This document shows positions 1-59,028 of a stretch of DNA of 59,028 nucleotides, piece by piece (position 1 is the first letter of the stretch; each line of letters opens with the position of its first letter). The stretch is from a virus (lineage: Duplodnaviria; Caudoviricetes), in the IMG/VR virus record IMGVR_UViG_3300027653_000014, positions 1 through 59,028 of that record. The stretch is one strand, 5' to 3'. A model generated the notes under the pieces. The model searched no databases and was not told the DNA's origin. It saw only the letters and a program-made list of their open reading frames with translations. The position numbers and the translations under genes are program-made.

Positions 1-475
1 CGCCGGCTGCGTGCACGAGTGCCCGTGCTCCTGCCTCGGCCTCGGTGGGCTGGTCGTGGTTGAGGAGCGCGTCGACTTCCTCAGCGATGTAGTCGTTCTG
101 CGGGCCAACGGCTCCACCGGCTGCCACAGCGTCGTCGTGCGCCACCTTGCCCGCCTCGATGGCCTCCTCGATGGCCTCGCGGGTGGGGCGGGTGCGGGCC
201 GTGGCGAGCAGGCCAGCCTCGTACCCCGCCCGAATCCAACCCATGACCGTGTTCGGTGCGGGGTGGGTCGTCTGGAACACGCGCTCGACCGCGTCCTCGG
301 TGGTCGCGGTGGTCGTCTCGGCGCGGCCAGCGGCCAGGCGCCCTTCGACGTAGCCCTCGATCTGGCCGATGGTCACGTAGTCAGAAGGCAGAAGGTCCGA
401 CTCTCGGGGAGTCCCGTAGCGCTGCTCAGCCTCGGCGCGGGCGTCGGTGACGGACGGGCGGTCGGCGGGGGTCAC
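1..475 (-). CDS. Modular hypothetical protein of the 'ETTT' family (3' end runs off the window)
   Basis: GTG at 475 overlaps the TGA of the upstream gene. The frame (MTPADRPSVTDARAEAEQRY...AAGRAETTTATTEDA...AGLLATARTRPTRE...) is open to position 1 and shares motifs with 3438..4289. Confidence 0.75.
   Translation of the reverse strand, partial: MTPADRPSVTDARAEAEQRYGTPRESDLLPSDYVTIGQIEGYVEGRLAAGRAETTTATTEDAVERVFQTTHPAPNTVMGWIRAGYEAGLLATARTRPTREAIEEAIEAGKVAHDDAVAAGGAVGPQNDYIAEEVDALLNHDQPTEAEAGARALVHAAG
176..302 (+). repeat. 127-bp exact copy of the window's last 127 bases (58902-59028)
   Basis: Direct comparison: CTCGCGGGTGGGGCGGGTGCGGGCC...GCGTCCTCGGTG is identical at both places, and the left flanks diverge. 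Confidence 0.95.
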
Positions 476-807
476 CGGGACACACCCGTCAGGAAGCGGG
501 CAGCCTCATCAAGTGCCGCCGGACGCTGCGCGGTGAGCCAGTCCGGCACGGGCGACCATGACGAGCCGAAGCCGACGCCAGACTGGCCGCCCTGCGGCGC
601 GCGCGTCTTGGGTCCGAACACTTCGACGTACTCGTCGGTTCGGTCCCACTGGCGTGAACGTTCATCCTCGGTGCGCGCCCATTTCGAGCCTCGGCTGATC
701 GTCCAGCGAGCCTTCTCGGGGCGGAAGTAGCCGGTTGTGCCCCGGAGTTCGTCAGGGCCGTGATCGAGCGTCGCGAGAATCTCGACGCTGACGTGGTGTG
801 TGCTCAT
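472..807 (-). CDS. Hypothetical protein
   Basis: ATG at 807 overlaps the upstream stop and follows an AAGGAG RBS. The ORF-track start at 924 is probably too long. Confidence 0.65.
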   Translation of the reverse strand: MSTHHVSVEILATLDHGPDELRGTTGYFRPEKARWTISRGSKWARTEDERSRQWDRTDEYVEVFGPKTRAPQGGQSGVGFGSSWSPVPDWLTAQRPAALDEAARFLTGVSR

Positions 808-1127
808 CGGTCTGTCTCCTTGATGGTGTCGGTGGGGGCCGCCGAGAGAGCGGCACGGAGGCGGTCGCGTTCGATGCGGGCTTCGTTGCGTGCCGCTTCG
901 TTCGACGCCGCCACTCGATGCCACTCACGCAAGTCAGCGATGAGGCGGAGGATGGTGGCGGGGTTCGCCGCAGCAATAAACTCGGCGTCGGCGGGGTTCC
1001 CTGCGAAGTCGTAGGACGCGATCGCGGACTCCCAATCGCCCGCATAGATGGTCGAGTCGTCGTAGTCCCAGGGGCCGGGCGTGGCTGCTTGGGCGAGCCT
1101 GGCGAGGTCATCCCACTCGGCGGTCAT
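804..1127 (-). CDS. Ead/Ea22-like protein
   Basis: ATPGPW...DAEFIAAANPATIL signature followed by a coiled coil. Confidence 0.65.
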   Translation of the reverse strand: MTAEWDDLARLAQAATPGPWDYDDSTIYAGDWESAIASYDFAGNPADAEFIAAANPATILRLIADLREWHRVAASNEAARNEARIERDRLRAALSAAPTDTIKETDR

Positions 1128-1288
1128 ACAGCTAGCACCTCCTCAATCCACTCTTCTTCGGTGCTTGCAACTCTATCCAAGTCGCCAGCACCCACATGAA
1201 ACTTCTGCTTCGCCTGCTCAGCAGTCTCAGCCTCGACCTCGTATACCTCAGTGAACGTACCGCTCACTGTGATGTGCCACTTCTTCAT
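1124..1288 (-). CDS. Small hypothetical protein (54 aa)
   Basis: MKKWHITVSGTFTEVYEVEAETAEQA..., GGAGG RBS, ATGA overlap with the next gene. Confidence 0.6.
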   Translation of the reverse strand: MKKWHITVSGTFTEVYEVEAETAEQAKQKFHVGAGDLDRVASTEEEWIEEVLAV

Positions 1289-1326
1289 CTTGTCCTCCCT
1301 CTCCTCCTATGTTACGGGTAAGCCTA

Positions 1327-2790
1327 CTACATGAAGTCGGCCCCTACAAGGCCGTCCTGAGTAATCTTGAGCTTGCCCAACTGACCTGTCTCTAGCGTGT
1401 CCTTGGCATACATGATGAAGCGGTTGATGACGTGCTTCTGCCCCGGCCTACGCAGCCGACCCTCAGCCTGCCGGTTAGCCGTCACAGACTCATCCTTAGA
1501 CAGCCAAATCTCCGTGCTGCACACATGCTGCAAGCCGTCAACACCCTCTGACATGGCAGTGATAGTTGCTACCAGCACGTCAGCCTCTCCGCTGCGGAAA
1601 GCCGCTAGCGCTGCCTCACGGGCATCCCTGCTCTGCCCCCCGTGGACTGCCGCAGCGGTGTATCCAGCCTTCCGCAGCCGGTGCAGCACAGTGGGGATGA
1701 TGCGCTTGCTGTGAGTCCAAATAAGGGCCTTGGACTCGGGCAGGTCATCCATAATCTCTACCAGTGCATCCAGTTTCGATGACTTGGCATCCTCCTTGAA
1801 GCTGACCTCTTCCTCATCATTCACGGAGGGCACAGCGAGTCCGACTTGTCGGAGCCTGATCCGCTTTGTGATCGGCAAGGCAGCGGCGACAGGATTGTCC
1901 TCAAGCCACGCTAGTGCGTCCTCCTCGAACTGCCGATACACCCGCCTCTGTGCGGGCAGCAGGTCTATGGGCACATCGTGGACCACTACCTCGGGCAGCT
2001 CACTGTGCACCTCTTCCTCTGTGCGCTTGACATACGTGGGGATAGACCGGGCGACGATGCCCGGTGCCTTCTCCCCGATGACCTCCTGCACATGTACCTT
2101 GCGCCCCGCTACCTGATATGTCGCGTAGGGGTTCGGTTGGGTGCGTAGGAACGTCTCAGTGAACGGTCCGAAATACTTGTACCGCTGCGGCCACAGGAAG
2201 TGCAGCACTGACCAGATGTTCTCGATCTTGTTGCCTGCCGGGGTAGCGGACAGGCCCAGCTTGATCGGTACCTTCTTTGCAGAGTGCATGATCTTAGCCT
2301 GGATTGACCGCCTGTTACCGCCCCTGTGAATCTCATCGAACACACTTGCGTCAAGCGGGTACTTGGACCAATCAAGCTGTTCTCGGATCACCCGGTCAAC
2401 TACCTTGTTGCCGCGACGGTCCGTGATCGTAGTGCCGTCAGGGTTCTTCGCATATCGGACAGAGCCGCGCCCCCACTCCCAGCCCACCATGTAGATGCCG
2501 GGCTCCCCGGCCTTCAGTGCTGCAAGGCTGTCCTCGGCGCGCTTGCTGTCGATGTACCTCACAGGGAGGTCGGGCAGGAACATCCTCGCGTGACGTTCCC
2601 AACCATAGAACGTGTTGATGGGTGCGGTGACGGCAATCCTCTGTGCCCCTAGCCTGCGTAGCACTTCCAGCGCTACCGGGGTCTTTCCTGCCCCGAGGCA
2701 GTGGGAAATCAGGCCGACTCCCCCGGCATTGACCAGTGTGTCGATGTCCTCTGCCTGGAACTGCCGCCACTGCCACCCTTCAACCGTCAT
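1327..2790 (-). CDS. Superfamily 2 DNA helicase
   Basis: Walker A LGAGKT, DEIH box, SATP motif III, EGVD and QAEGRLRR motifs. Confidence 0.9.
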   Translation of the reverse strand: MTVEGWQWRQFQAEDIDTLVNAGGVGLISHCLGAGKTPVALEVLRRLGAQRIAVTAPINTFYGWERHARMFLPDLPVRYIDSKRAEDSLAALKAGEPGIYMVGWEWGRGSVRYAKNPDGTTITDRRGNKVVDRVIREQLDWSKYPLDASVFDEIHRGGNRRSIQAKIMHSAKKVPIKLGLSATPAGNKIENIWSVLHFLWPQRYKYFGPFTETFLRTQPNPYATYQVAGRKVHVQEVIGEKAPGIVARSIPTYVKRTEEEVHSELPEVVVHDVPIDLLPAQRRVYRQFEEDALAWLEDNPVAAALPITKRIRLRQVGLAVPSVNDEEEVSFKEDAKSSKLDALVEIMDDLPESKALIWTHSKRIIPTVLHRLRKAGYTAAAVHGGQSRDAREAALAAFRSGEADVLVATITAMSEGVDGLQHVCSTEIWLSKDESVTANRQAEGRLRRPGQKHVINRFIMYAKDTLETGQLGKLKITQDGLVGADFM

Positions 2791-3441
2791 ACGTAGTCCT
2801 CTTCCTCCTCTCGCAGTCCTAGGGCCTCATCTCGATCCTTCTCGGCAGCCTTGACAGCCCGCTCGTAGTCCAGAAAGTCAAGTGTTCCATCGGTGTACCA
2901 CTTGTCTAGCAGCGCAAGCACCCGGCGCATTAGTCCTCCCCTTCAATAAAGATTGCAGCGATGTGTTCCTTGTTAAAGTACGCCCACTTCCCATCACTAA
3001 GGGTCAGAGCAAGCGATGAAGCGCTCTTGCTGAGGGCACTATGAGATGCCCGCGCAGTAACTGCAGGAGCAACATCATCCTGCCACTCGCCTTCGTAATG
3101 GCGTCCAATGTTAGAGACAACAACCACCCGATGCCTGCTCATGACCACACCGCATACAGGTGGTGCTCGCAGTATTCCTCTCCCGGTACTGCATCCTCTT
3201 CGCAATACTCGTCTGGCCCGAAGTTCGGGCTGTCAGGGTTACGCGATCCGTAGTACATGACCGCTGCGCAGTACGGTTCCATGCTTCCTCCTCAGTCTCG
3301 AAAATACTTGTCAGTACCTAGCTCGTTGACGCTATTGCAGAGAATGCATCGCCACCACGAACAGTTCTTACCCTCGCAGTGCTCATTACGACTGAACACT
3401 GTCTTACGGCAGCCGCCGCACTTCTGTGGGACAGTTGTCAC
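2787..3441 (-). CDS. Run of four small, closely packed hypothetical genes (about 2787-2930, 2930-3142, 3139-3282, 3292-3441; two are Cys-rich)
   Basis: Short ORFs with overlapping stop/start codons or short gaps and purine-rich RBS. Confidence 0.55.
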
Positions 3442-4289
3442 TGGTCGTCACCACCTTCGAGCAGCGGGGCGGCCAGCCCAAGCGCTCGCAGGACTGCCTC
3501 GCGCTCGACGCCGAGTTCGTCAGCGATCTTCTGCTGATACTCGACGGTGTAGGTCGGGTGAACGTTGACGGTGCGGGCCGTGGCAAGCAGGCCAGCATCC
3601 ATGAGTGCTCGGGCAGCATCGGCAGGAACAATGAACGACTTACTACCGTTGTAATGGCGCGTGGACTCGATGACCTGTGCTGCGTCCTCGGTGGTGGCGG
3701 TGGTCGTCTCGGGGTAGACCACCTCGACGGTCAGACCACGATCCTCGGCCTGGGCCAGCAGCGATTCGATGAGCGCCTGGGTCTTGCCGCCACGACGTGC
3801 CACGAGAGTCGCGGTGGTCGTCTCGGCGGGACGGGCCGCGTCGCACCCCTCGGTCTGGCACACTTCGATGGGCGGCAACTCGTAGCCCCTGGATGTGACG
3901 TTCCGCTGCCGCTTCCAGTCGTGCTCGTGCTCGGTGGTCGTCTCGGTGCAGCGGTGGCAGTTGCCGCACATCTCCCCGAGGGACGGGTAGCATGACGGGT
4001 ACTCTCGATCCTCGGTGGTCGTCTCGGCGCGGCCAGCGGCGTACACGTCGAGGATGGCCTTGCCGTCGCGGTCGTAGAAGGCGTCGAGGACTACCCTCCG
4101 CGCGTCCTCGGTGGTCGTCTCGGCGCGGCCAGCGGCCAGGGCGGCGGCCCACCCCGCTTCGTAGCCCTTCACGAAGCCGCCTCGGGCGTGCTCACGAACG
4201 GCGGAACGGGGGTAGGTCAGCGCCTCGTCGTCGGCGTTGAGTGCGGGATAGTGGCGCTCGGCTTCGGCGCGGGCGTTGTCGGTGCTCAT
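3438..4289 (-). CDS. Modular hypothetical protein with five ETTT linker repeats
   Basis: 283-aa ORF in which unrelated segments are separated by ETTT linkers. Confidence 0.85.
   Translation of the reverse strand: MSTDNARAEAERHYPALNADDEALTYPRSAVREHARGGFVKGYEAGWAAALAAGRAETTTEDARRVVLDAFYDRDGKAILDVYAAGRAETTTEDREYPSCYPSLGEMCGNCHRCTETTTEHEHDWKRQRNVTSRGYELPPIEVCQTEGCDAARPAETTTATLVARRGGKTQALIESLLAQAEDRGLTVEVVYPETTTATTEDAAQVIESTRHYNGSKSFIVPADAARALMDAGLLATARTVNVHPTYTVEYQQKIADELGVEREAVLRALGLAAPLLEGGDDQ
3698..4123 (-). repeat. Array of five exact 15-bp direct repeats (CCGAGACGACCACCG on the minus strand); sixth copy at 307-321
   Basis: CGGTGGTCGTCTCGG on the plus strand at 3698, 3812, 3932, 4013 and 4109. 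Periods are 114, 120, 81 and 96 bp, all multiples of 3. Confidence 0.95.
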
Positions 4290-4292
4290 TGG

Positions 4293-4625
4293 TTAGCCGT
4301 CCTCCTGTGTAATCGTGATACGCGGCGCGTAGTGATCCGAAACATCATCTACTAGGTCCGGGTACAGCGCCTTGAACTTGGTCCCGCTCACTACCTGCTC
4401 ACTGACCTGCTCCAACTCCTCCTTGGACAGGACCAGCGCGGCCTTCTTAGGGTTGAACCTCTTGTTAGGGGTCACCTTGAGTGTCAAGTTCCCCACAGCG
4501 GTCACGTCCCCCTCCTTGACCTGCGAGCGCAACTCAGCCTTCAGCTCGTCGGCCCGCTGCGTCAGGAACTTTGCATCCTGCGTCAGGCGGTAAATCTCTT
4601 CTACAAGTGCTTCCTTGTCAGCCAC
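4293..4625 (-). CDS. Hypothetical phage protein with coiled-coil N-terminus
   Basis: 110 aa, GGGAGG RBS, upstream promoter motif. Confidence 0.75.
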   Translation of the reverse strand: MADKEALVEEIYRLTQDAKFLTQRADELKAELRSQVKEGDVTAVGNLTLKVTPNKRFNPKKAALVLSKEELEQVSEQVVSGTKFKALYPDLVDDVSDHYAPRITITQEDG

Positions 4626-4660: not shown

Positions 4661-4975
4661 CTAGTCGGTGGCTTCGTCGTCAAGCATCGCCACTAGATCA
4701 AACTCGTTGGACTCCCCGGCCCATACGCCCCACGCTGGGCGCTCCCGGTGAAAGAAAGCGTGGCAGGCAGCGAAAGCGTCAGGCTGCGTCAGCTGGCACT
4801 GCGTCAGGCACAGGTGAGCGGCCTCCTGCACGGCTTCCTTGACGTGGCGCATCGATCCTGACTCACCGAACCACAGATCAACCACTCGACCATTCTCTAG
4901 CCGTCGTCCGGCTACCTCAGCGTTCATACAAGGTGTGTCTGCATCCTCGGGCAGGTTAGGCATGTTCAGCATCAC
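4661..4975 (-). CDS. whiB: WhiB-family transcription factor
   Basis: Four Cys (C...DLWF...CLTQC...C) and a WGVWAG turn motif. Confidence 0.8.
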   Translation of the reverse strand: MMLNMPNLPEDADTPCMNAEVAGRRLENGRVVDLWFGESGSMRHVKEAVQEAAHLCLTQCQLTQPDAFAACHAFFHRERPAWGVWAGESNEFDLVAMLDDEATD

Positions 4976-5214
4976 AGGGGCGGCTCCTTCCGGTAAGGAT
5001 TATCCAACACAGTCCCGTAAACATCATTGTCTACTGCACTTTCGTATCCCTCGTCCCAAGCGTCAGCCTTGAGGTTATCCAGCCAGCGCAAGAACTCTGC
5101 GCCTGTACCAGACATGGTGCCGTCCTCCCCGACCACAAAGTGATAGGCGCTCCCCTGCTGTACGCAGTACGCCTCTAGCACCTGCATAGTGTTCGGTGTG
5201 TAGTCATCGCTCAC
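4972..5214 (-). CDS. Hypothetical protein ending in a WDEGY...NPYR module
   Basis: ORF coupled to whiB; its C-terminal motif is shared with 58710..59028. Confidence 0.65.
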   Translation of the reverse strand: MSDDYTPNTMQVLEAYCVQQGSAYHFVVGEDGTMSGTGAEFLRWLDNLKADAWDEGYESAVDNDVYGTVLDNPYRKEPPL

Positions 5215-9363: not shown

Positions 9364-9442
9364 CGTCTCTCATCCTCTCAGTGTGTGTGTTGCTAGGTGA
9401 CCATAGCCACCTACCGCCGTAGCGATAGGCGACTAAAGCGAC

Positions 9443-9736
9443 CTAGTGCAGGCGCTCCCGCTTGATTCCGCCGCGCGGCCCTACCGTGAGGCGGTAGTCC
9501 GCTTCCGCCGCATCGGAGAGTGTCCGGCCGATTGCTTCCGCCTCGCTTTCGTATTGGTCCGTGCGCCACAAGATTAGTTGCGCGTCATCGTTAAGCGGTA
9601 GTTCGTCCAGGAACATCGTCGCGTGATCTAGGTCAGTGAAAAACTCCACGTTCTCACCCGGATAGGCGGGTGCGTAGTTAGCACCGCCCATGATCTGCCC
9701 TACGTATCGCGCTTCCATGCCGCCGATGTGTGCCAT
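9443..9736 (-). CDS. Hypothetical early protein
   Basis: 97 aa ending VGPRGGIKRERL; start motif present. Confidence 0.8.
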   Translation of the reverse strand: MAHIGGMEARYVGQIMGGANYAPAYPGENVEFFTDLDHATMFLDELPLNDDAQLILWRTDQYESEAEAIGRTLSDAAEADYRLTVGPRGGIKRERLH

Positions 9737-10139: not shown

Positions 10140-10216
10140 CGTCTCTCATCCTCTCGTTGTGTGTTGCTAGGTGACCATGACTACCCACCGCCGTGGCAGT
10201 GAGCAATCAAAGCAAC

Positions 10217-10456
10217 CTAGGCAACCTCACGGTGAAACACGTACGTGACGGTCCGTGCACCATCCCACGGGGTGGTGGTATCTGCCTTAGTGGTCAGCCG
10301 CACCCGTCCCCCGTACTGCCTAGCCTGTCCCGTGAACCACTGAGGGCTAGGCACACTGTCTGCAGTGCCAGCGTCAACGCTGTACCACTGAACAACAACC
10401 TTGTTGCCTGTCTTCAGGTCCGTCATCCAGATTCCCTTGACCTGTGTCCTGCTCAT
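10217..10456 (-). CDS. Hypothetical protein, first gene of the leftward early operon
   Basis: GGGGAGG RBS and upstream promoter motif. Confidence 0.75.
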   Translation of the reverse strand: MSRTQVKGIWMTDLKTGNKVVVQWYSVDAGTADSVPSPQWFTGQARQYGGRVRLTTKADTTTPWDGARTVTYVFHREVA

Positions 10457-10496: not shown

Positions 10497-11500
10497 TTGA
10501 TGCGTAGCCGTATGTATAGCCTAGAAGCGTGATTCTAGGTAACGATTGCATAACGGAAGCTGACAGCCGCCGGCCAAGAAACAGTTGAAGAGTAAAGTAA
10601 AGAGATGGTCAAGTTGTCGACAGGTGTAGATCCTGATATGGATAAGCGTACAGGGGTATGCGTAGGTGTGTTGGTTGTGGATAAGTTTCCAGGGTAGCGG
10701 TTACGGATACGCGCATAAGTGTCTGCGTAGGTGTATCGTCGGGAGGTGTTGAAGATACGTATAGGCGTAGGTAACCCCACCCTAGAGAGAGTAGTCTATA
10801 TATATATAGTGTTTATACATACACTTAAACATCCGTTTGATGCTTATCCATATCTTTACGCTTATCCATATCAATAAACCCTGTTTTGGGACACCCCCCC
10901 CTCGTTAGGGCACCACTAAACCCTCTTATATGTATCTTCGTTTGGCGCGAAGACTAGTTTAAGCGTACAAAAATGAGCCCTTTGATGCGTATCCGTAACC
11001 GAGACTGCCGAAAGTTATCCACAGTACATATAGATACGCATATGTTGTGGATATGTGGATAAAGTTGTGGATAAGCTTGGAGAATGGGCGATGGTAAAGG
11101 AATGGTAAAGCGGTTTGGGTGGTGGGCTGCTTGGGCTGGTTGGTCGGCTTGGACGGTGGTGTGGGTGAGGCGGGCTGGTTGCGGGTAGGTGGGACGGGGA
11201 GGAATGACGGACGATGGTACCGGGCTACCGTTGAACGGGTCAATGGTTGTAGGTGTGAATCGTTGGCGGGATGAGCTTTTTGCCGGCAGGTGGGTAGGTG
11301 AGAATGAAAATCAATCGCATTAGCTGCTCGCCGGTAGGTGGGGGTCATCGTCGTGAGTACATAGAGACCGTTTTGGAAATCTTGGACAGGTAGCCGTATC
11401 CTGAGTACATGGACGACCAACCCAAAAACCTTGATGCTTACCCGTAAAATTTTTCCTGCTACGACTTGCAGAATCTTGATGCGTAGGTGTAGTATGAGGA
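10497..11500. promoter_or_regulatory. About 1 kb non-coding divergent control region with DnaA boxes, an AT-rich tract and iteron-like repeats (origin or terminus candidate)
   Basis: TTATCCACA/TGTGGATAA at 10676, 11015, 11054 and 11066, plus 4 near-matches. A TA run near 10797-10808. TTGATGC(G/T)TA occurs five times. Confidence 0.7.
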
Positions 11501-16095: not shown

Positions 16096-16626
16096 GTGGC
16101 CGAAAAAGAGGTTGTAGAAGCGTCCGCGCTGACGAAAATGATTGTTCAGGCCCGCGAACGGGGCAAGTCCTTCATCCAAATCGCGGAAGACTATGAAATC
16201 ACGCCTGAGAAGGCGTATGCGGACTACATGGCGTTCATGGAGTCTGAAAATGAGGTCAATGAGTACGAATACCGCCTTTTGCAGCTTCGGCGTCTTGAGC
16301 GCTTGATTGACAAGTGCTATGAACTTGTTGAGGTGGGCTCTGTTGACCACATGAAGCTCACTTTGAGCGTCATCAAGGAGATTTCTGCTCTACTCGGCCT
16401 CCACAAGGAGAAGGCCCAGCAGATTGTGCAGGTTATTGACCAAAGACAAGTGGTGCTAGTCACAAACTATGTCCAGGCGGTCTCCGACACGCTAAAGGCG
16501 CAGGTTTTGCGCACTGTCACCGCCAAAAAGGCGCGGGAACAGCTCGAAACTGAGTGGGATCGGTGGGTCGCTGAAGCCTCTGCGGAGCCGCTGAAGGAGA
16601 TTGAGCAGGACAAGGTAAAGGTCTGA
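16096..16626 (+). CDS. Terminase small subunit (putative)
   Basis: N-terminal HTH (RERGKSFIQIAE); coupled to the large subunit. Confidence 0.7.
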   Translation: MAEKEVVEASALTKMIVQARERGKSFIQIAEDYEITPEKAYADYMAFMESENEVNEYEYRLLQLRRLERLIDKCYELVEVGSVDHMKLTLSVIKEISALLGLHKEKAQQIVQVIDQRQVVLVTNYVQAVSDTLKAQVLRTVTAKKAREQLETEWDRWVAEASAEPLKEIEQDKVKV

Positions 16627-19187
16627 TGGTCAACTTTCAGGCGGTAGCCAAAAACCTTCAGAAGAAGGCTAACCATTCGCTGCACCTCAATGACCCTGTT
16701 TCATGGGCAATGGATGAGGTTGACGTAACTTTGTGGTCCAAGCAGCAGGAAATTATGCGTGCGTTGGTCACGCATAAGAACGTCGCAGTTAAGACGACCT
16801 TCAGTGTTGGGAAGATGTTGCCCCTCGACACTCCGATCCCTACACCTAAAGGATGGTCCTCGATGGGCTCTCTCAAGGTAGGTGATCAGGTGTTTGGTGA
16901 GGACGGGAAGCCTACTACTGTCACGTACGTCTCGCCCACTCAGGTTGGCAAGATGTACGAGCTTACCTTCAATGACGGTACAACGATAGTGGCTTGCGCA
17001 GACCACCAGTGGAATACGCTTACCCACACTGATAGGCAGAGGGCTAAGAGGTACCGAAAGGGTGCTAGTGCTGACTGGCGGGACCATTGGGATGAGTCCA
17101 GCACTAAAACCACTCAGCAGATCGTAGATACTCTGCGAAACTCTAATAACCAGCCAGTGCACGCTATTCCGATAGCGGCCCCACTACAGTTGCCCGATGC
17201 TGACCTGCCTCTGGACCCCTATATCTTCGGGGCGTGGCTGGGCGATGGGGCTAGCAGGGCTCCACAGATGTACATCGGTAACGATGGCGGGCACATCATA
17301 GAAGAGTTTAACGCTAAGGGATACACCCTGACGAAGATGGTGTCTGATCCTTATGGGTACACCTTCGCAGCCGCACACAAGAGGGGTGACTATGTGCGGC
17401 TGCTTAAGAAGATGAATGTGTACCGCAACAAGCACATTCCTATGGAGTACCTACGTGCCTCTGAATGGCAACGGAGAGAGGTGCTGCGAGGCATCTTAGA
17501 TACTGATGGCTTCGTTATCAGGGACAGCACTGTTGGCATCGATTTGATGAACAGGCCCCTAGCTGAGAGCCTTGCCGAGCTGATCCGCAGCCTTGGGTAC
17601 AAGGTGAACCTGCGGGAAAACCGTGCCACAGTCAGCGGGCGTGATGTTGGTGTGCGGTACCGTATGGCCTTCACCGCCAACAGCAACCCGTTCACGCCCG
17701 GTGGGGCTAAGCACGAGAAGTTCACTGCTGCAACTAGAACAAGCGTGTCTCGGACCACATGCAGGACTATTGTGGCAGCGAGGGAGGTTGAAGAGGTGCC
17801 TTCTCGCTGCATCTCCGTTGACAATGAGCGCAGCCTCTACCTAGCGGGAGAGAACTTCATCCCCACCCATAACACGATGAGCGCCGCCGTCGCTGCGGCG
17901 TGGTGGGTGGCAACACGAGGACCTGACTCGTTGGTGTTTACGACGGCCCCGACCAACTTCCAGGTTCGTGCCCTCCTGTGGTCTGAAATCCAGAAGCTGC
18001 ACGTCCGCGCGGGACTGCCGGGACGCATTACACAGGACGCACGCTGGATGTACCCATTTGGCACTACTGAGCGTATGGTTGCCTCCGGTGTAAAGCCTGC
18101 TGACGGCAGTGCTGAGGACCAGGAAATCAACACCCTTCAGGGCCTGCACCGTAAGGGCGGCATTCTAGCCATTGGAGATGAGGCAAACGGCCTGACGCCC
18201 GGCATTTTCCGAGGCTTGCAGCGCATTACTACCGCTAAGCACGACCGTATCTTGCTTATTGGGAACCCGACCTCGCCCGGCACAGAGTTTCACAGGCTGT
18301 TCAAGGAAAAGCCTGAAGACTGGTACCTGATGACCATTTCGGCATTCGACTCCCCCGCATTCACTGGGGAAGAGGTGCCGGAAGACCTGCTGGCGGGAAT
18401 GCCTGATCCTGAGTGGGTGGAACTACGGCGCAAGGAGTGGGGCGAGGACTCGAACCGCTGGAAGTCGAACATCCTCGCGGAGTTCCCCACTACCTCTGAT
18501 GACGGCCTGTTCAATCAGTCGCTGGTCGATGCTGCGGCCAAGAACCAGGAACACAAGAAGTCCGAGACCGCTGCCCCTGTGATGGGCGTTGACGTTGCCC
18601 GCTACGGAGGCGACTCCTCCACGGTGTTCGTGCGGTGGGGCAAGTATGTGGAGTTCCTTGACTCTTGGACAGGACTGGACACCCAGGAGACCGCTGAGCG
18701 GGTTGCAGGCCATGCCAAGAGGCTTGGCTGCCGCGAACTGCGGGTTGACGCCATCGGCGTGGGTGCAGGTGTCGTTGACGCACTAGCACGGCTGCTACCC
18801 GAGGCAGCGGTGTACGAGATGATTGGTTCTGCGGCTAGCCCGGACGCCACCAAGTGGTACAACGCTCGCGCGTACTGGTACGACAAGCTCCGCGAACAAA
18901 TCCATGCAGGTGACTTGACCATTCCGAATCATGACAAACTCCTTGATGAGTTCGGAGTGATCCGGTACACCATCCGAGGCTCGGCAATGCTGATCGAGTC
19001 CAAGGAAGACATGCGCAAGCGGGGCGTGAAGTCTCCTGACTACCTTGACGGGCTTCTCTACACCTGCGCCGATGTCCACGGGGACGGTATTGAGGGTGAA
19101 CAGATCGTGGGTGAGGAAGACATCTTTGATGAAGATGAACTGCTCACAATCGATGGACGAGAAGCCTGGTCATTTGTTCCGTGGTAG
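16626..19187 (+). CDS. terL: Terminase large subunit containing an intein
   Basis: Split Walker A (SVGK|T), Walker B (IGDEA), IGNPT, nuclease motifs GVDVARYGGD and KSPDYLD. Confidence 0.95.
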   Translation: MVNFQAVAKNLQKKANHSLHLNDPVSWAMDEVDVTLWSKQQEIMRALVTHKNVAVKTTFSVGKMLPLDTPIPTPKGWSSMGSLKVGDQVFGEDGKPTTVTYVSPTQVGKMYELTFNDGTTIVACADHQWNTLTHTDRQRAKRYRKGASADWRDHWDESSTKTTQQIVDTLRNSNNQPVHAIPIAAPLQLPDADLPLDPYIFGAWLGDGASRAPQMYIGNDGGHIIEEFNAKGYTLTKMVSDPYGYTFAAAHKRGDYVRLLKKMNVYRNKHIPMEYLRASEWQRREVLRGILDTDGFVIRDSTVGIDLMNRPLAESLAELIRSLGYKVNLRENRATVSGRDVGVRYRMAFTANSNPFTPGGAKHEKFTAATRTSVSRTTCRTIVAAREVEEVPSRCISVDNERSLYLAGENFIPTHNTMSAAVAAAWWVATRGPDSLVFTTAPTNFQVRALLWSEIQKLHVRAGLPGRITQDARWMYPFGTTERMVASGVKPADGSAEDQEINTLQGLHRKGGILAIGDEANGLTPGIFRGLQRITTAKHDRILLIGNPTSPGTEFHRLFKEKPEDWYLMTISAFDSPAFTGEEVPEDLLAGMPDPEWVELRRKEWGEDSNRWKSNILAEFPTTSDDGLFNQSLVDAAAKNQEHKKSETAAPVMGVDVARYGGDSSTVFVRWGKYVEFLDSWTGLDTQETAERVAGHAKRLGCRELRVDAIGVGAGVVDALARLLPEAAVYEMIGSAASPDATKWYNARAYWYDKLREQIHAGDLTIPNHDKLLDEFGVIRYTIRGSAMLIESKEDMRKRGVKSPDYLDGLLYTCADVHGDGIEGEQIVGEEDIFDEDELLTIDGREAWSFVPW
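16815..17873 (+). mobile_element. Class 3 intein (353 aa) with LAGLIDADG homing endonuclease
   Basis: Starts MLPLDTPIPTP (no Cys/Ser at position 1); DHQW in block B; GAWLGDG and RGILDTDG motifs; RCISVD in block F; ends PTHN|T. Confidence 0.9.
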
Positions 19188-45881: not shown

Positions 45882-46622
45882 TCATGCCCTGCTCCTACGC
45901 ACCAGGAACGTGCCGCCGATCAACGTTAGCAGCGCGATGCCAGCAAGCCCGGCCACCTGACCAGCCCCTGTGGGTGGCATACCACACTCGGTGTACTCGG
46001 CGTCGGTCATCTCACGGACCTCGACCGTCTCGGTCGAGACGACCTCCCGGTCGGTCTCGGTCCACTCACCCCAGGTCTCGATCCAGTCGGCCCCGTCCCA
46101 CTCGATGGTGGAGGTGCGCTGCTCGGTGACATGGAACGTCTCGCGGATCGTGGTGACGGTGCCGTACCCGGCCTCCTCACTCGGGCACTGGGTGACCTCG
46201 CGCTCCTCGGTGTCCTCGACCTCACGGGTCTCGGTGCCGGGCTCCGGCTTAGGGCCAACCGGGATGGGCTTCTGCCCACCCTCACCGAAGTGCTGGTTGT
46301 AGCCGTGGATTTGAACCCAGGTGATGCGGCCCTCGGTGATACCGAACGCGGACCACGGGATGAAGGACTCACCGATCCACTGCCCGCCGGGGTGGTCGTT
46401 GTTCGGGTCGAACTGAATGCCAGCAGTCTGCTCGATGCCGTCACCGTCGAAGTAGCGGACGTTGACGTGCCCGTGGGCCTGGAACGTGTCGCCAGCCGAG
46501 AGCTGGATACCCTCGGTGGTCACCTGGTAGGGGGTCGGGGCGTCGGAGCCTTCGTCAGCGAATGCCGCACCTCCCACCACCATGAACAGTGCTGCCAGTA
46601 CAAGCGTGAGAATCTTCCTCAT
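45882..46622 (-). CDS. Secreted surface protein with LPXTG-like anchor
   Basis: Signal peptide MRKILTLVLAALFMVVGGAAFA; C-terminal MPPTG, hydrophobic helix and RRSRA tail. Confidence 0.75.
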   Translation of the reverse strand: MRKILTLVLAALFMVVGGAAFADEGSDAPTPYQVTTEGIQLSAGDTFQAHGHVNVRYFDGDGIEQTAGIQFDPNNDHPGGQWIGESFIPWSAFGITEGRITWVQIHGYNQHFGEGGQKPIPVGPKPEPGTETREVEDTEEREVTQCPSEEAGYGTVTTIRETFHVTEQRTSTIEWDGADWIETWGEWTETDREVVSTETVEVREMTDAEYTECGMPPTGAGQVAGLAGIALLTLIGGTFLVRRSRA

Positions 46623-46623
46623 A

Positions 46624-47328
46624 TTAGTCCTCCTCCATGTCCTGAAACGAATGCGGCGCAATCTGCTTGAGTTGCCGCAAAATCTCCTTGCTGAACAACT
46701 GGATTTCAGCGTCAGCGGCGGGGTCGTTGCGCTTAGCAATCACATCACGCCACGCCCGCAGGTTACCCGTACAAACGAGCTTGGTCTCCTGCTGGTTAGG
46801 CAGGACAGCACGGGCAGCCTCGCGGGCCTGCTTGCGAGGCAAGCCCTTGCTGGTGTAGTGCGCCACGAGGTCGTTGTAGTACCCGTGCGCCGCCCAGTGT
46901 GCCTTCTGGTGAATCATGGCAGTAACCATGTCGTCTTCCGCAGCGGGCGGCAGCACAAGGTCGTCCTCGCGGTCCTCGTTGACGAACCGCTGAGACAACT
47001 GGCTGTAGGACAGGTGCCGGTGGCGAATCAGTTCGTGGGTCAGCGCACGGCTCACACCCTGCACATAGAACGTGGCGCTCGCGTGCTCAAGCACCGAGAA
47101 GTGCCCCTGCTTGAGAATGTTGGCGATGTACCCCTCGTTGGTGGCGGTCGCCGGGTTGGGGCGCTTCCAACTGGTATAGCAACTTCTGCCAGCGAACTCC
47201 ACTAGTTCGTCGGCGTACGTTACCGAACCCTCGGGCATGTGGCGCTCGTACGGGGTTTCGTCCACCATGTAGTCGTACATTCGTCCCGGCGCTGCCAGCA
47301 CCGTGTGCGCAATCAAATCAACCTGCAT
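46624..47328 (-). CDS. thyX: FAD-dependent thymidylate synthase
   Basis: GHFSVLEH, RHRHLSYSQLSQR and AREAARAVLP motifs. Confidence 0.97.
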   Translation of the reverse strand: MQVDLIAHTVLAAPGRMYDYMVDETPYERHMPEGSVTYADELVEFAGRSCYTSWKRPNPATATNEGYIANILKQGHFSVLEHASATFYVQGVSRALTHELIRHRHLSYSQLSQRFVNEDREDDLVLPPAAEDDMVTAMIHQKAHWAAHGYYNDLVAHYTSKGLPRKQAREAARAVLPNQQETKLVCTGNLRAWRDVIAKRNDPAADAEIQLFSKEILRQLKQIAPHSFQDMEED

Positions 47329-54591: not shown

Positions 54592-55152
54592 TCAGAGGGT
54601 GATCTTCTGCTTGCCCTTCTTGGCCGGTGCCTTCTTCTTGCCGCCGGTCAGGCCACCATCGTCCTCCTTGGGCCAACCGCCGACAGGACGATAAGCGGAG
54701 ATTTCGTTGCGGAAGATCGGCTCGCCGTCCCACCCATCCTTGCTCTCAGCGTAGGAGTCACGCTTGACGGTGGCGTAGAACTCCAACTCGGTGCCCTGCA
54801 ACTCCTCGGGGGTGGGGAACTGGACCTTGGAGCGGTCCTCGCCGTCCCACACCTCAGTGACACGGGCGAGCTGCTCGCCCTTCTGCGCCATCCACGGGGC
54901 GTTCTCCGTGGTGAAGAGCATCACGTTATCGAACACGACACGCTTGTAGTGCTCACCCTCCTGGGTGACATTCACCCGGAGCTTGTAGAAAGGCTTGCCA
55001 GGGTTCTTGGCGTTCGGCCCCGTCTTCTCAAGGGAAGCCTCGTAGATGACGCCCTCGTACCACCCCTTGGGGATGGGCGAGAAGTCTCCGCCGCCGCCAG
55101 CCTTGGTCGCGTCCTCAGCGCCGGAAAGGTCCAGAACAATACGGTCACTCAT
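54592..55152 (-). CDS. ssDNA-binding protein (DUF669-like)
   Basis: FSPIPKGWY...K.PGKP...RVVFDN...RNEI; follows the AAA gene. Confidence 0.75.
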   Translation of the reverse strand: MSDRIVLDLSGAEDATKAGGGGDFSPIPKGWYEGVIYEASLEKTGPNAKNPGKPFYKLRVNVTQEGEHYKRVVFDNVMLFTTENAPWMAQKGEQLARVTEVWDGEDRSKVQFPTPEELQGTELEFYATVKRDSYAESKDGWDGEPIFRNEISAYRPVGGWPKEDDGGLTGGKKKAPAKKGKQKITL

Positions 55153-55934
55153 CAGTTGTCCTCCTCAGTGTTGTCTTCCGCAGCAGTGTTGCTACGGCCC
55201 TTGCCTACTACACCACTGGCGATGTAGTCATGCACCTTAGCCATGCTGGGATGGCCCAGCAGGACAGGGATCGTATCGGTGCGGTCCTTGGCAATAATGC
55301 CATCCATACCCTCGGTCTGAAGGATGCGCAGGGGATCACCCTCATCATCCTTGTCCACGTACAGGTACGCTATCACATCGAAAATCTTGGGGCCTTCCTT
55401 CCCCGTCTTGCGTCCGAGGAAGTACGGCGAGGTGGTGACCTTGCCCGTCAGCTCATCCTTCTCACTGTCGGTGTGTGCCAGGACGATCACCGTCATTCCT
55501 GTGCGGTGAAGCATGTCGATGAACCGCAAGGTGTCATCGGCCAAGTTGCCCCAAACGGCGAACTTGTTGCTTCCCGCCTTCTTCTCTGCGTGGGGCAGCA
55601 TGTACTCCATCATCTTGCCGATGGTGTCAATGATGACCGTTTGGTACCCGTGGTCGTCGTTGTTCAGCAGTGCCTCAAGCACTGCCTTCAACTCATCCCA
55701 ATCAGAGGGCCGGATTACATCAATGCCCTTGGTGTACAGGTTCTCGATGGATGCAGAACCTGCCTCAACGTCGATGAGAAGAACCTTCTGCAAGTCCTTG
55801 ACCTCTGAGGCTGATGCTGCTAGCCGGGTCTTTCCAGAGCCTGGCGGACCATATACAAGGAAAGTCTTGTTGTTTGCCTTAGTCACAGGGGGGCCAATCG
55901 GAATCCCCAAGCTGGCTAGATCAAACTTAGCCAT
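55152..55934 (-). CDS. AAA ATPase (AAA_24/Sak4-like)
   Basis: YGPPGSGKT, IDVEAG, IIDT, LAH and AKDR motifs. Confidence 0.88.
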   Translation of the reverse strand: MAKFDLASLGIPIGPPVTKANNKTFLVYGPPGSGKTRLAASASEVKDLQKVLLIDVEAGSASIENLYTKGIDVIRPSDWDELKAVLEALLNNDDHGYQTVIIDTIGKMMEYMLPHAEKKAGSNKFAVWGNLADDTLRFIDMLHRTGMTVIVLAHTDSEKDELTGKVTTSPYFLGRKTGKEGPKIFDVIAYLYVDKDDEGDPLRILQTEGMDGIIAKDRTDTIPVLLGHPSMAKVHDYIASGVVGKGRSNTAAEDNTEEDN

Positions 55935-56118
55935 CAAACACCTCATTCAGTAGTGTACGTGCCTGCGTAACGTAGTGTTTCATCCATCTGTGGATCATGT
56001 CTAGGTCTCCCTCGGTAGTCCCAGCCGGGAGATTTTCGTCCTCGTATACCCAGATGAACTCGGGCTCAGCGTCGAGGTACTCAAGCGCTAGCCGCAGTCC
56101 TTCCTTCTGTGGATTCAT
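55927..56118 (-). CDS. Hypothetical protein
   Basis: ATG at 56118 with GAGGA RBS. Confidence 0.6.
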   Translation of the reverse strand: MNPQKEGLRLALEYLDAEPEFIWVYEDENLPAGTTEGDLDMIHRWMKHYVTQARTLLNEVFDG

Positions 56119-56268
56119 GTTTTCAGTCCTCCTCTGTGTACAGCAGCGATGAAAGCTCATCCATTGCAGCGGCAAGAGTGGTCTGATCGCCAAAGTTGTA
56201 GGCATATACAGCTCTCCTGGCTGCCATCTCAATACCTTGATAGCGATATACCTCGCCGTAACGGTTCA

Positions 56269-56946
56269 TCAGTACCTTCCCTCCCTCCGGCAACCCCAGC
56301 AGTCAGGGTCACCCTCAATGTCCTCGGTGCCGTACGCCTGCGCGTACTCGTAGATGTCTGCTGCCCGTTCCATGTAAGCGTACACGATGTCGGGGTTGAA
56401 CGGAAACTCGACCATAGTGATGCCGCTCACACTCATCGAGTCGCGGGGGAACAGATACAGGGCAACCGTCTTGACCTCAAAGCCCTCGTTCGCCATGCCG
56501 ACGCCGTACGCCTGAATCTGCACGTAATACTCAAGGGCTTGGTTCTCGATGAACTCGACCCTACCATCCGGCAGGCGCATGTACCCGTTCTTGATGTTCT
56601 TCATGCTGTTCTTGCCCACCAGCTTGTAGTCGCCCACCTGTGAGTGCTCATGGTCGTAGCGGTCACAGGTGCCGGTGATCCTGCCATAGCCCTTGATAGT
56701 ACCCACCTCGACCCTGCGCTCGGTCTCGATGGTGGGGTCGCGCTCATTCTGCTCTAACCACAGGTGCATCGCGGTCCCGTACCAAGGGTAGAGGCTGAAC
56801 GTCTGTTCCTGCTTGTTGCCCAGCATCTCTTCGGCTAGGCACAGGGCGCACTGCTTGCCCAGCGAGGACGGCCCGATACGTGTCTGCTTGTCGCGCTCAT
56901 CTGGCGCTGTGACTGTGGCGATAAGTTTATCAAGCGGGTGTGTCAT
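56269..56946 (-). CDS. Cas4-like/PD-(D/E)XK exonuclease
   Basis: IGPSSLG.C..C, GTAMH, E, GTCD, DYK, Q..AY and C-terminal C..C motifs. Confidence 0.85.
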   Translation of the reverse strand: MTHPLDKLIATVTAPDERDKQTRIGPSSLGKQCALCLAEEMLGNKQEQTFSLYPWYGTAMHLWLEQNERDPTIETERRVEVGTIKGYGRITGTCDRYDHEHSQVGDYKLVGKNSMKNIKNGYMRLPDGRVEFIENQALEYYVQIQAYGVGMANEGFEVKTVALYLFPRDSMSVSGITMVEFPFNPDIVYAYMERAADIYEYAQAYGTEDIEGDPDCWGCRREGRY

Positions 56947-58015: not shown

Positions 58016-58462
58016 CTAGCACAAACACTGCGGTTCCCCCTTTGGAATCGTCGTATCGAGTTCGTACCCAGGCCACACGGCGCGAGCTACTCCTGCTCCT
58101 CTCATTGCTTTTACACAGTTTGGGCAGGGCTCGTCAGTGATGTACATCGTAGCCCCGCGTGCGGCCCGTCCTGCGATCAGCAGTGCGTTAACCTCAGCGT
58201 GCAGTGCGATGCAGTAGGCGGGTGATGAGGGATCAGAGTAGTCCGTCATCGCGGCTGTCTCTTCGTAGGAAAGCAGTCCGCGCGGGCAATGGCCCGCCAA
58301 GCAGCCGGGGTGGCCGCTAGGTGCCCCGTTGTACCCGACCTCTAGGATTCGGTTGTCTGTACCTACCAGCACTGCGCCCACCTTGCGGCGTCGGCAGTCT
58401 GCTCGTGTGGAGACAGCTTCAGCTATGCCCAAGAAGTAGGTGCCCCAGTCAGGCCTGGTCAC
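58016..58462 (-). CDS. dCMP deaminase
   Basis: RPDW..YF, GYNG, HAEVNAL and PCPNC motifs. Confidence 0.95.
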   Translation of the reverse strand: MTRPDWGTYFLGIAEAVSTRADCRRRKVGAVLVGTDNRILEVGYNGAPSGHPGCLAGHCPRGLLSYEETAAMTDYSDPSSPAYCIALHAEVNALLIAGRAARGATMYITDEPCPNCVKAMRGAGVARAVWPGYELDTTIPKGEPQCLC

Positions 58463-58713
58463 TGGTCGTCACCCCCGGCGATCCGTGCGGCTAGCTGCCA
58501 GGTGAAGACCGCCGATGGGGTGCGGGCTTGTGCGGCGCGGGCCGTGAACTGGTCACGCAGCTGGGTACGCACGGCCTGTTCGGTGACGGTGGCGATGTGG
58601 TGGGAGTAGGCGTCCTCCCAGACCTCGTCCTCGCGCCATGGCTGTCCGCATCCACAGCGCCATGGCTCCTCTATCGGATGCTCGGCGGCGATCTTCTGGG
58701 CGATGGCGCTCAC
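58459..58713 (-). CDS. Hypothetical protein ending GGDDQ
   Basis: GTGA overlaps at both ends. Confidence 0.65.
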   Translation of the reverse strand: MSAIAQKIAAEHPIEEPWRCGCGQPWREDEVWEDAYSHHIATVTEQAVRTQLRDQFTARAAQARTPSAVFTWQLAARIAGGDDQ

Positions 58714-59028
58714 TGGTCACCACCGCCTCGGTACGGGTTATCAGACAGTGCATCACCGAGATAGCCACCGTCTGCTCCTGCCTGATAGCCCTGGTCCCAC
58801 ACGTCGGCGGGGTCGGGCTGGTCGGCCAGCAGCGCCAGCACCGCATCGGCGGCTTCGTAGGCGTCAGCGTCGTCCCAAACGGAGAGAGCCTCGCGGATCT
58901 GCTCGCGGGTGGGGCGGGTGCGGGCCGTGGCGAGCAGGCCAGCCTCGTACCCCGCCCGAATCCAACCCATGACCGTGTTCGGTGCGGGGTGGGTCGTCTG
59001 GAACACGCGCTCGACCGCGTCCTCGGTG
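58710..59028 (-). CDS. 3' part of an ETTT-family modular gene (5' end is off the window, or continues from 303-475)
   Basis: ...TEDAVERVFQTTHP...AGLLATARTRPTREQIREAL...NPYRGGGDQ. Confidence 0.75.
   Translation of the reverse strand, partial: TEDAVERVFQTTHPAPNTVMGWIRAGYEAGLLATARTRPTREQIREALSVWDDADAYEAADAVLALLADQPDPADVWDQGYQAGADGGYLGDALSDNPYRGGGDQ

Follow-up and report, generated by a model that had tools for sequence, protein, structure and literature searches.

The question raised by this locus is why the two ends of a phage contig share 127 bases that begin, on the left, at base 176 rather than at base 1. The window, by which we mean the whole stretch of DNA analysed (59,028 bases), is the entire JGI/IMG contig and was identified as phage (IMG/VR record, linear, CheckV estimate 77%). 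On recomputation, bases 176-302 and the last 127 bases (58902-59028) were identical at 127 of 127 positions, as the earlier note had claimed. The identity ends immediately leftward (0 further bases), and an ungapped comparison of 1-175 with 58727-58901 gives 66 matching positions in 175. The pair, spaced by 58,726, is the sole repeat longer than 63 nt within the window.

The window is an actinobacterial-type siphovirus. PHROGs matches were found for terminase, portal, protease, capsid, major tail, tape measure, endolysin, DNA polymerase, primase and helicase, and also for a Sak4-like annealing protein, an exonuclease, an SSB-like protein and a RuvC-like protein. For the portal, the matches listed include those in Arthrobacter and Clavibacter phages whose genomes measure 58-59 kb, at 31-35% identity, and most records matching it are Microbacterium phages. 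The large terminase (16626-19187) is unusually long at 853 aa. PHROGs terminase families match it at residues 36-428 and, separately, at 420-817; its first half also has weak matches of primase and DnaC-like P-loop type. Minus-strand genes occupy both ends of the contig, reading from ~10.4 kb to base 1 at the left and from 59,028 to ~45.2 kb at the right, so that joining the ends unites one gene block. Two intergenic stretches of the minus-strand block hold a 63-nt direct repeat (9384-9446 and 10158-10220, 79% identity), which may be a repeated promoter or operator region. In the low-G+C region (0.51) around the switch of gene strand, a 56-nt inverted repeat (10657-10712 and 10987-11042, 73% complementary, 274 nt apart) makes 10657-11042 a candidate regulatory region or origin.

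The end match itself has an ordinary origin. The available part of the JGI workflow description gives metaSPAdes with k = 33, 55, 77, 99 and 127 (bioRxiv 10.1101/2020.09.30.320929), in line with the earlier note, which had named 127 as an assembler k-mer size. With an entire JGI contig as the window and 127 as the final k-mer size of the workflow, the match is one k=127 metaSPAdes graph vertex traversed twice, and the contig is a closed cycle from 176 to 59028 (58,726 bp without the overlap) plus a 175-nt side edge entering the same vertex. As in a de Bruijn circular-contig overlap, the repeat length equals the final k, and closure joins the two minus-strand gene blocks, restoring the operon and an intact ORF whose stop overlaps the next start. 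Unlike such an overlap, the repeat is not at both extreme ends, its left copy beginning at 176, and the contig has a side edge with an alternative coding continuation. The earlier note was correct that a plain circular overlap would match base 1 but overlooked a cycle with a short side edge in a k=127 graph. A direct terminal repeat of the phage does not agree with the 175-nt offset, and the IMG/VR record is linear with no end repeats.

Both copies of the repeat (R) lie in minus-strand reading frames. The left ORF runs from a GTG at 475 to base 2 and consists of an N-terminal part (N, 58 codons), R (42 codons) and a cassette A (58 codons); its translation passes from ..AGLLATARTRPTRE into AIEEAIEAGKVAH.., with no stop before the contig start. 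The right ORF begins at 59027 with the same 42 residues and continues into QIREALSVWDD..NPYRGGGDQ (cassette B, 63 codons) up to a stop at 58710-58712. Both frames are thus open, as had been stated, and A and B share no similarity by BLASTP. The earlier description of two C-terminal modules on the same gene body stands for the 127-nt R only, as nothing in the window ties B to 303-475. From the way the graph is built, no 127-mer should span both base 175 and base 303, so the graph alone cannot assign A or B to N. The parts of the gene are as follows, with module and linker coordinates derived by hand from the reading frame and motif positions.

1..175, minus strand: cassette A, with a slot-3 module at 56-175, linker L3 (DQPTEAEAGARAL) at 17-55 and the first 5 codons of a tail module at 2-16.
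176..302, minus strand: R copy 1, with linker L2 (AGLLATARTRPTRE) at 176-217, R-core at 218-289 and the 3' part of L1 at 290-302.
290..334, minus strand: linker L1 (AAGRAETTTATTEDA), holding the 14-mer GGTGGTCGTCTCGG at 308-321.
335..475, minus strand: N-terminal part, with slot-1 module N at 335-424, linker L0 (ADRPSVTDARAEAE) at 425-466 and the GTG at 473-475.
58710..58901, minus strand: cassette B, with a slot-3 module at 58851-58901, linker L4 (ADAVLALLADQP) at 58815-58850, a tail module at 58713-58814 and the stop at 58710-58712.
58902..59028, minus strand: R copy 2, cut by the contig end.

The branch point of the graph is the 3' edge of the conserved linker L2 (..LLATARTRPTRE), which is identical or near-identical in five other loci (L009-L013). 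The window end, equivalent to base 302, sits 6 nt from the 14-mer encoding ETTT, close to the ETTT repeat as the earlier note had placed it. The GTG start overlaps the TGA of the upstream gene (472-807), and the stop of B overlaps the GTG of the next gene. The L4 of cassette B is identical in L012 and L013 (25/25), and its tail module, which carries WDxGY..NPYR, resembles the C-terminus of the ORF at 4972-5214 (tblastn, 51.9% over 27 aa, E 1.4e-4). The G+C of the mosaic genes (1-475, 3438-4289 and 58710-58901) is 0.66-0.73 compared with a window-wide value of 0.588. The gene at 804-1127, which lies two places upstream of the end gene, has a weak Ead/Ea22-like Pfam match (25.0 bits, cut-off 27), and its C-terminal part is found again within a longer ORF of L009.

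The end gene belongs to a family that is organised around such linkers. The 14-mer encoding ETTT occurs in six exact copies in the window against 0.04 expected, with one copy in the end gene and five in a paralog.

3438..4289, minus strand: 283-aa paralog, carrying an AGLLATART linker besides five ETTT linkers.

When the paralog was searched against 1.84 billion representative proteins, 91 matches were obtained at E<=1e-3, and the best stretch of each covers the query partially, except for its own 99%-identical representative (P0038). The N+R+A query gave 36 matches among proteins of 86-277 aa, 3 at 278-2000 aa and 0 at 30-85 aa; outside 86-277 aa, no N-bearing protein was found at high identity. 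The family set comprises 155 proteins, namely 146 from searches and look-ups, which include some products of neighbouring genes, and nine ORFs of the window and loci. At least two kinds of linker are carried by 58 of the 155, and 57 of these 58 keep the order L0<=L1<=L2<=L4, where L0 is ..DRPSVTD.ARAEA, L1 is AAGRAETTT (often followed by ATTEDA), L2 is AGLLATARTRPTRE and L4 is ADAVLALL or QPTEAEAGARAL. The exception is a protein from the source 'SRC', which we take to be a protein-level read assembly that can be chimeric. The slots between the ordered linkers hold diverse sequences.

Slot 1: 27 distinct sequences, 10 clusters at 50%.
Slot 2: 31 distinct sequences, 19 clusters at 50%.
Slot 3: 18 distinct sequences, 14 clusters at 50%.

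The linkers are conserved down to the codon. Across the window and the five loci, identical codons encode AETTT in 12 of 13 copies, LATART in 8 of 10 and TRPTRE in 6 of 6; one copy per locus in L010-L013 served as search bait, while the remaining copies and all those of L009 did not. In blastn comparisons of the window with L009-L013, islands of 21-62 nt with 82-100% identity appear, and those checked coincide with linkers (for example 37/37, 33/33 and 25/25). Beyond the islands, L011 has a single longer stretch of homology (568 nt at 79.6%), and two further alignments are at ~70%. Short conserved sequences are thus found at the junctions of unrelated modules, the arrangement known from boundary-sequence mosaicism. 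In run X19, record 12 represents a related phage that has a different short mosaic with the same linkers, set between conserved flanks, at the place of the paralog.

Shared DNA was also seen at gene boundaries. Unrelated neighbouring genes have common C-terminal peptides, ..DTIKETDR*, ..GGDDQ* and ..GGGDQ* (800-830, 3437-3470, 58458-58491 and 58710-58725), and the underlying DNA serves the next gene, supplying its ribosome-binding site and its overlapping start (ATGA or GTGA): that of ..DTIKETDR* contains AAGGAG and the ATG of the next gene, while ..GGGDQ* and ..GGDDQ* overlap the next GTG. The same boundary DNA is seen again in L009, L011 and L013.

There was no match to bases 1-1300 in a phage collection (blastn) or to N+R+A in 50,697 cultured-phage records (tblastn), and protein-pattern scans of viral contigs with N+R+A, R+B and P0001 gave none or one weak match (L008, 40%). 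The mosaic genes belong to no PHROGs family and, in the 20 proteins scanned with Pfam, to no Pfam family at the cut-off. A 26-mer of L2 had 0 matches in 185,579 species genomes. The 7 matches of an L1 21-mer in these genomes were treated as chance, as 0 of 7 had a second linker kind in frame. Among the papers listed on phage gene mosaicism and module shuffling, no title or abstract described the family.

Whether cassette A is genuine can be judged from L009, a 3,499-bp contig from another metagenome. Its mosaic ORF (331 codons as listed, 307 aa from the likely start) has different upstream cassettes, ends with ..AGLLATARTRPTRE and A, and then continues for 33 more codons to a stop. Positions 2737-2956 of L009 match window bases 220-1, that is, A plus 45 nt of linker, at 99.1% of the DNA with mismatches at 128 and 218 only, and beyond window base 220 just 12 of 40 bases are shared. 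On the sequence evidence, cassette A is real and mobile, since A with its linker is found again, at 99.1% identity, in another gene carried by a contig of a different metagenome. The shuffling of modules at the RPTRE boundary, which the earlier note had put forward, is supported by these independent sequences, in which linkers are kept and cassettes swapped. About 1.3 kb upstream of the L009 mosaic gene, with two ORFs between, L009:149-738 is 84% identical in DNA to the gene of a 285-aa protein at 45882-46739 that has no PHROGs match; gene order differs between the phages.

How common A is in the population was approached through sequencing runs. The best-holding run, X1, contains 0.96 of the sampled words of 1-3000, and its contigs match 309-4500 without differences; runs X2, X4 and X19 hold relatives only (share 0.26-0.28). 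Three X1 sequences carry the depth comparison, in which each Logan contig has one depth figure and indicates presence but not absence, and X1 may differ from the source sample of the window.

958-3711: X1 backbone contig (2,754 nt), depth 45.3.
309-471: X1 N unitig, depth 48.3.
27-204: X1 A unitig, depth 18.5.

For the comparison of 1-175 with the genome mean that the earlier note had proposed, X1 gives 18.5 for A against 45.3 for the backbone. The X1 A unitig has G at 128, like L009, and no X1 contig has the A of the window at this position. A second branching vertex at 1-127 would fit the contig start, which lies 127 bases before this variable base. Further continuations in X1 include a third to the left of 182, two to the right of 213/214 and one to the left of 295. 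The summed X1 depth over 151-900 is 155-259, i.e. 3.4-5.7 times the backbone, indicating that modules of this region occur in many other X1 contigs.

A form with A in every genome copy does not fit X1. We give a probability of about one half to the reading in which the genome is a closed circle, mostly in the N+R+B form, while A is a branch found in a minority. In this simplest reading, the commonest genome in X1 would be a closed circle encoding a 163-aa N+R+B protein, for which we infer the phasing of N with B; an N-to-B joined protein was not present in the collection at 30-2000 aa.

The phasing is complicated by a second assembly. An ENA contig of 59,682 bp, 654 nt longer than the window, encodes exact matches to all 8 of the 8 complete window proteins that were looked up, while the three truncated end ORFs of the window are absent from the protein collection. 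It also encodes P0003, in which a 114-aa body, here body', with its own L0 and L1 linkers is joined exactly to R+B. In at least one assembly of the same phage, B is therefore attached to a different body from N. No part of the window encodes the first 35 residues or the middle cassette of body', which is either the body of a second tandem gene or a further slot-1 allele. P0001 is body'+R+A; like P0004, P0005 and P0145 it comes from source 'SRC', and these were not counted as proof of combinations.

A pair of tandem paralogs with a gap, one of the two options offered in the earlier note, is a less probable reading than the circle. Here, N+R+A would be followed by body'+R+B with R as a direct repeat of at least 127 nt, the window would lack ~0.45-0.65 kb between 59028 and 1, deletion between the R copies would produce N+R+B, and tandem and collapsed forms may coexist. 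The extra 654 nt, the body' parts encoded outside the window and the mutual compatibility of the JGI path (A-R-N) and the ENA path (B-R-body') are consistent with such an arrangement, and the minimum gap, made up of 342 nt and the 102 nt that complete A in L009 and P0001, comes to 444 nt and so has room within 654. It is also usual for one genome to carry several mosaic genes, with two in L011, three in L013 and two in the window. A fixed tandem pair, in contrast, is at odds with the depth of the X1 A unitig (18.5 versus 45-48 for the backbone and N) and with its 128G allele being the only one there. In addition, a complete N+R+A protein was not found in the collection, and the 74-aa gene lying behind A in L009 could not be located on the longer ENA contig. 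A gap holding that gene was itself considered and rejected, its cluster having one member, from the 3,499-bp contig only.

Bases 1-175 could also come from a rarer co-occurring phage that shares R or L2, with no genome carrying N+R+A. The link from A to N would depend on repeat resolution by the assembler, as expected if no 127-mer holds both 175 and 303, and X1 contains both an L009-like context beside L2 (the loose end at 214) and the L009-type 128G allele, as well as the many other contigs with modules of 151-900 that its summed depth implies. We nevertheless regard such a mis-join as unlikely, because the edge 1-302 needs 127-mers with both A-specific bases (to 175) and R-core bases (from 221). 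From the construction of the graph, a molecule with A, L2 and R-core should have existed in the reads, as L009 agrees with the window at no more than 12 of 40 bases past base 220. All sequences in which R-core was observed are related to this phage (P0001, P0003, P0004 and P0145).

Returning to the circle with N+R+B as its main form, the end match exposes a real branch at a linker of a hypervariable, linker-scaffolded gene. The vertex would lie in a small early gene of this family, where slots between ordered linkers hold unrelated cassettes, and A and B would be alternative cassettes for the slot behind L2, the branch in the graph coinciding exactly with the 3' edge of L2. The compared sequences give good support for module shuffling at the linkers. 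The cassettes may be exchanged by homologous recombination across linkers of 25-50 nt or across the longer R module, possibly with help at the linkers from the phage's own annealing protein and exonuclease.

54592..56946, minus strand: phage recombination genes, the putative agents of exchange at the linkers (PHROGs matches phrog_124, 5.1e-53; phrog_1674, 4.5e-43), with an SSB-like gene at 54592-55152, a Sak4-like annealing gene at 55152-55946 and a Cas4/RecB-like exonuclease gene at 56269-56946.

This mechanism is suggested by the anatomy of the gene and by published relaxed phage recombination, the exchange products being what is seen directly; phage recombinases are described, in the available part of one source, as acting on short and diverged homologies (PMC3945230). 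The codon-level conservation of the linkers could instead reflect selection on DNA or RNA. A further step would make the linkers dedicated recombination signals, with tandem paralogs storing cassettes and recombination at linkers or R reassorting early-protein modules in the phage population. We regard this as speculative and rather doubtful. If it is true, the window catches a natural population with tandem and collapsed forms, and the system would be the counterpart, for early host-takeover proteins of phages, of tail-fibre motif swapping or antigenic-variation cassettes.

As to function, our guess is that the mosaic gene encodes a fast-evolving early protein aimed at variable host targets. 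Some cassettes resemble zinc ribbons; an ESM Atlas search with P0001 had a best score of 0.80, with a Lar-like zinc-ribbon cluster at 0.78 that serves as a lead only. The AlphaFold2 model of P0003 made without an alignment was unusable (mean pLDDT 49.8).

Mosaic genes of this type seem to break assemblies often: contig ends fall within or close to them in the window, L012 and L013, and false 'linear' or 'incomplete' calls can result. The viral contig L012 starts exactly behind an ETTT linker (L012:1-276), and L013 has three mosaic genes near its start, with a match ~1.6 kb from the start. The window has its CheckV value of 77% although the cycle has a full set of virion, lysis and replication genes. 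The family also makes intragenic, homology-guided exchange directly testable.

Several known systems can be set beside this gene. Shufflon or invertase switching was rejected, since the only inverted pair in the window is the one at 10657-11042 and no invertase or integrase was found among the 47 proteins scanned, all from the larger ORFs. A diversity-generating retroelement was rejected as well, A and B being dissimilar and the same 47 proteins including no reverse transcriptase. In polymorphic toxin and CDI systems, C-terminal cassettes are exchanged at a conserved demarcation motif. The mosaic gene is similar in that unrelated C-terminal modules alternate behind a conserved motif, but its proteins are small and exchange would involve several slots. 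Polymorphic toxin exchange was rejected, there being no toxin or immunity domain and no Pfam family at the cut-off in the 20 proteins scanned.

Phage mosaicism is commonly put down to illegitimate recombination, conserved junction sequences being rarely found, according to the accessible portion of a study that itself describes conserved boundary sequences (PMC3029335). As far as that portion goes, the two cases are alike in that short, near-identical sequences flank unrelated modules, some of them at gene boundaries, and they differ in that most linkers here lie within one reading frame and delimit cassettes of ~20-60 aa. A gene family of an uncultivated soil phage with codon-identical in-frame linkers, a fixed order and 10-19 unrelated clusters per slot therefore opposes the usual picture.

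Along with conserved boundary sequences, the design of T-even adhesins is the closest known pattern. In the T-even gp38 adhesin, conserved glycine-rich motifs separate hypervariable segments, and the distal tail fibre recombines between conserved motifs, as reported in the accessible part of one source (PMC3157838). The mosaic family likewise keeps its motifs in fixed order (57 of 58 proteins), separated by hypervariable segments, and exchange would take place at these motifs. Work by Tetart in 1998 is reportedly cited alongside such recombination in the distal tail fibre. Membership of the gp38 family was rejected, as the gene is not among the virion genes and has no adhesin match: it lies in the minus-strand early/replication block, with no tail or adhesin match in PHROGs or Pfam. 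Unlike those of gp38, its linkers are rich in Thr, Ala and Arg, and its cassettes are unrelated modules rather than loops of one domain. The linker-mosaic family is thus previously unannotated, while conserved boundary sequences and the design of motifs with hypervariable segments are already known elsewhere.
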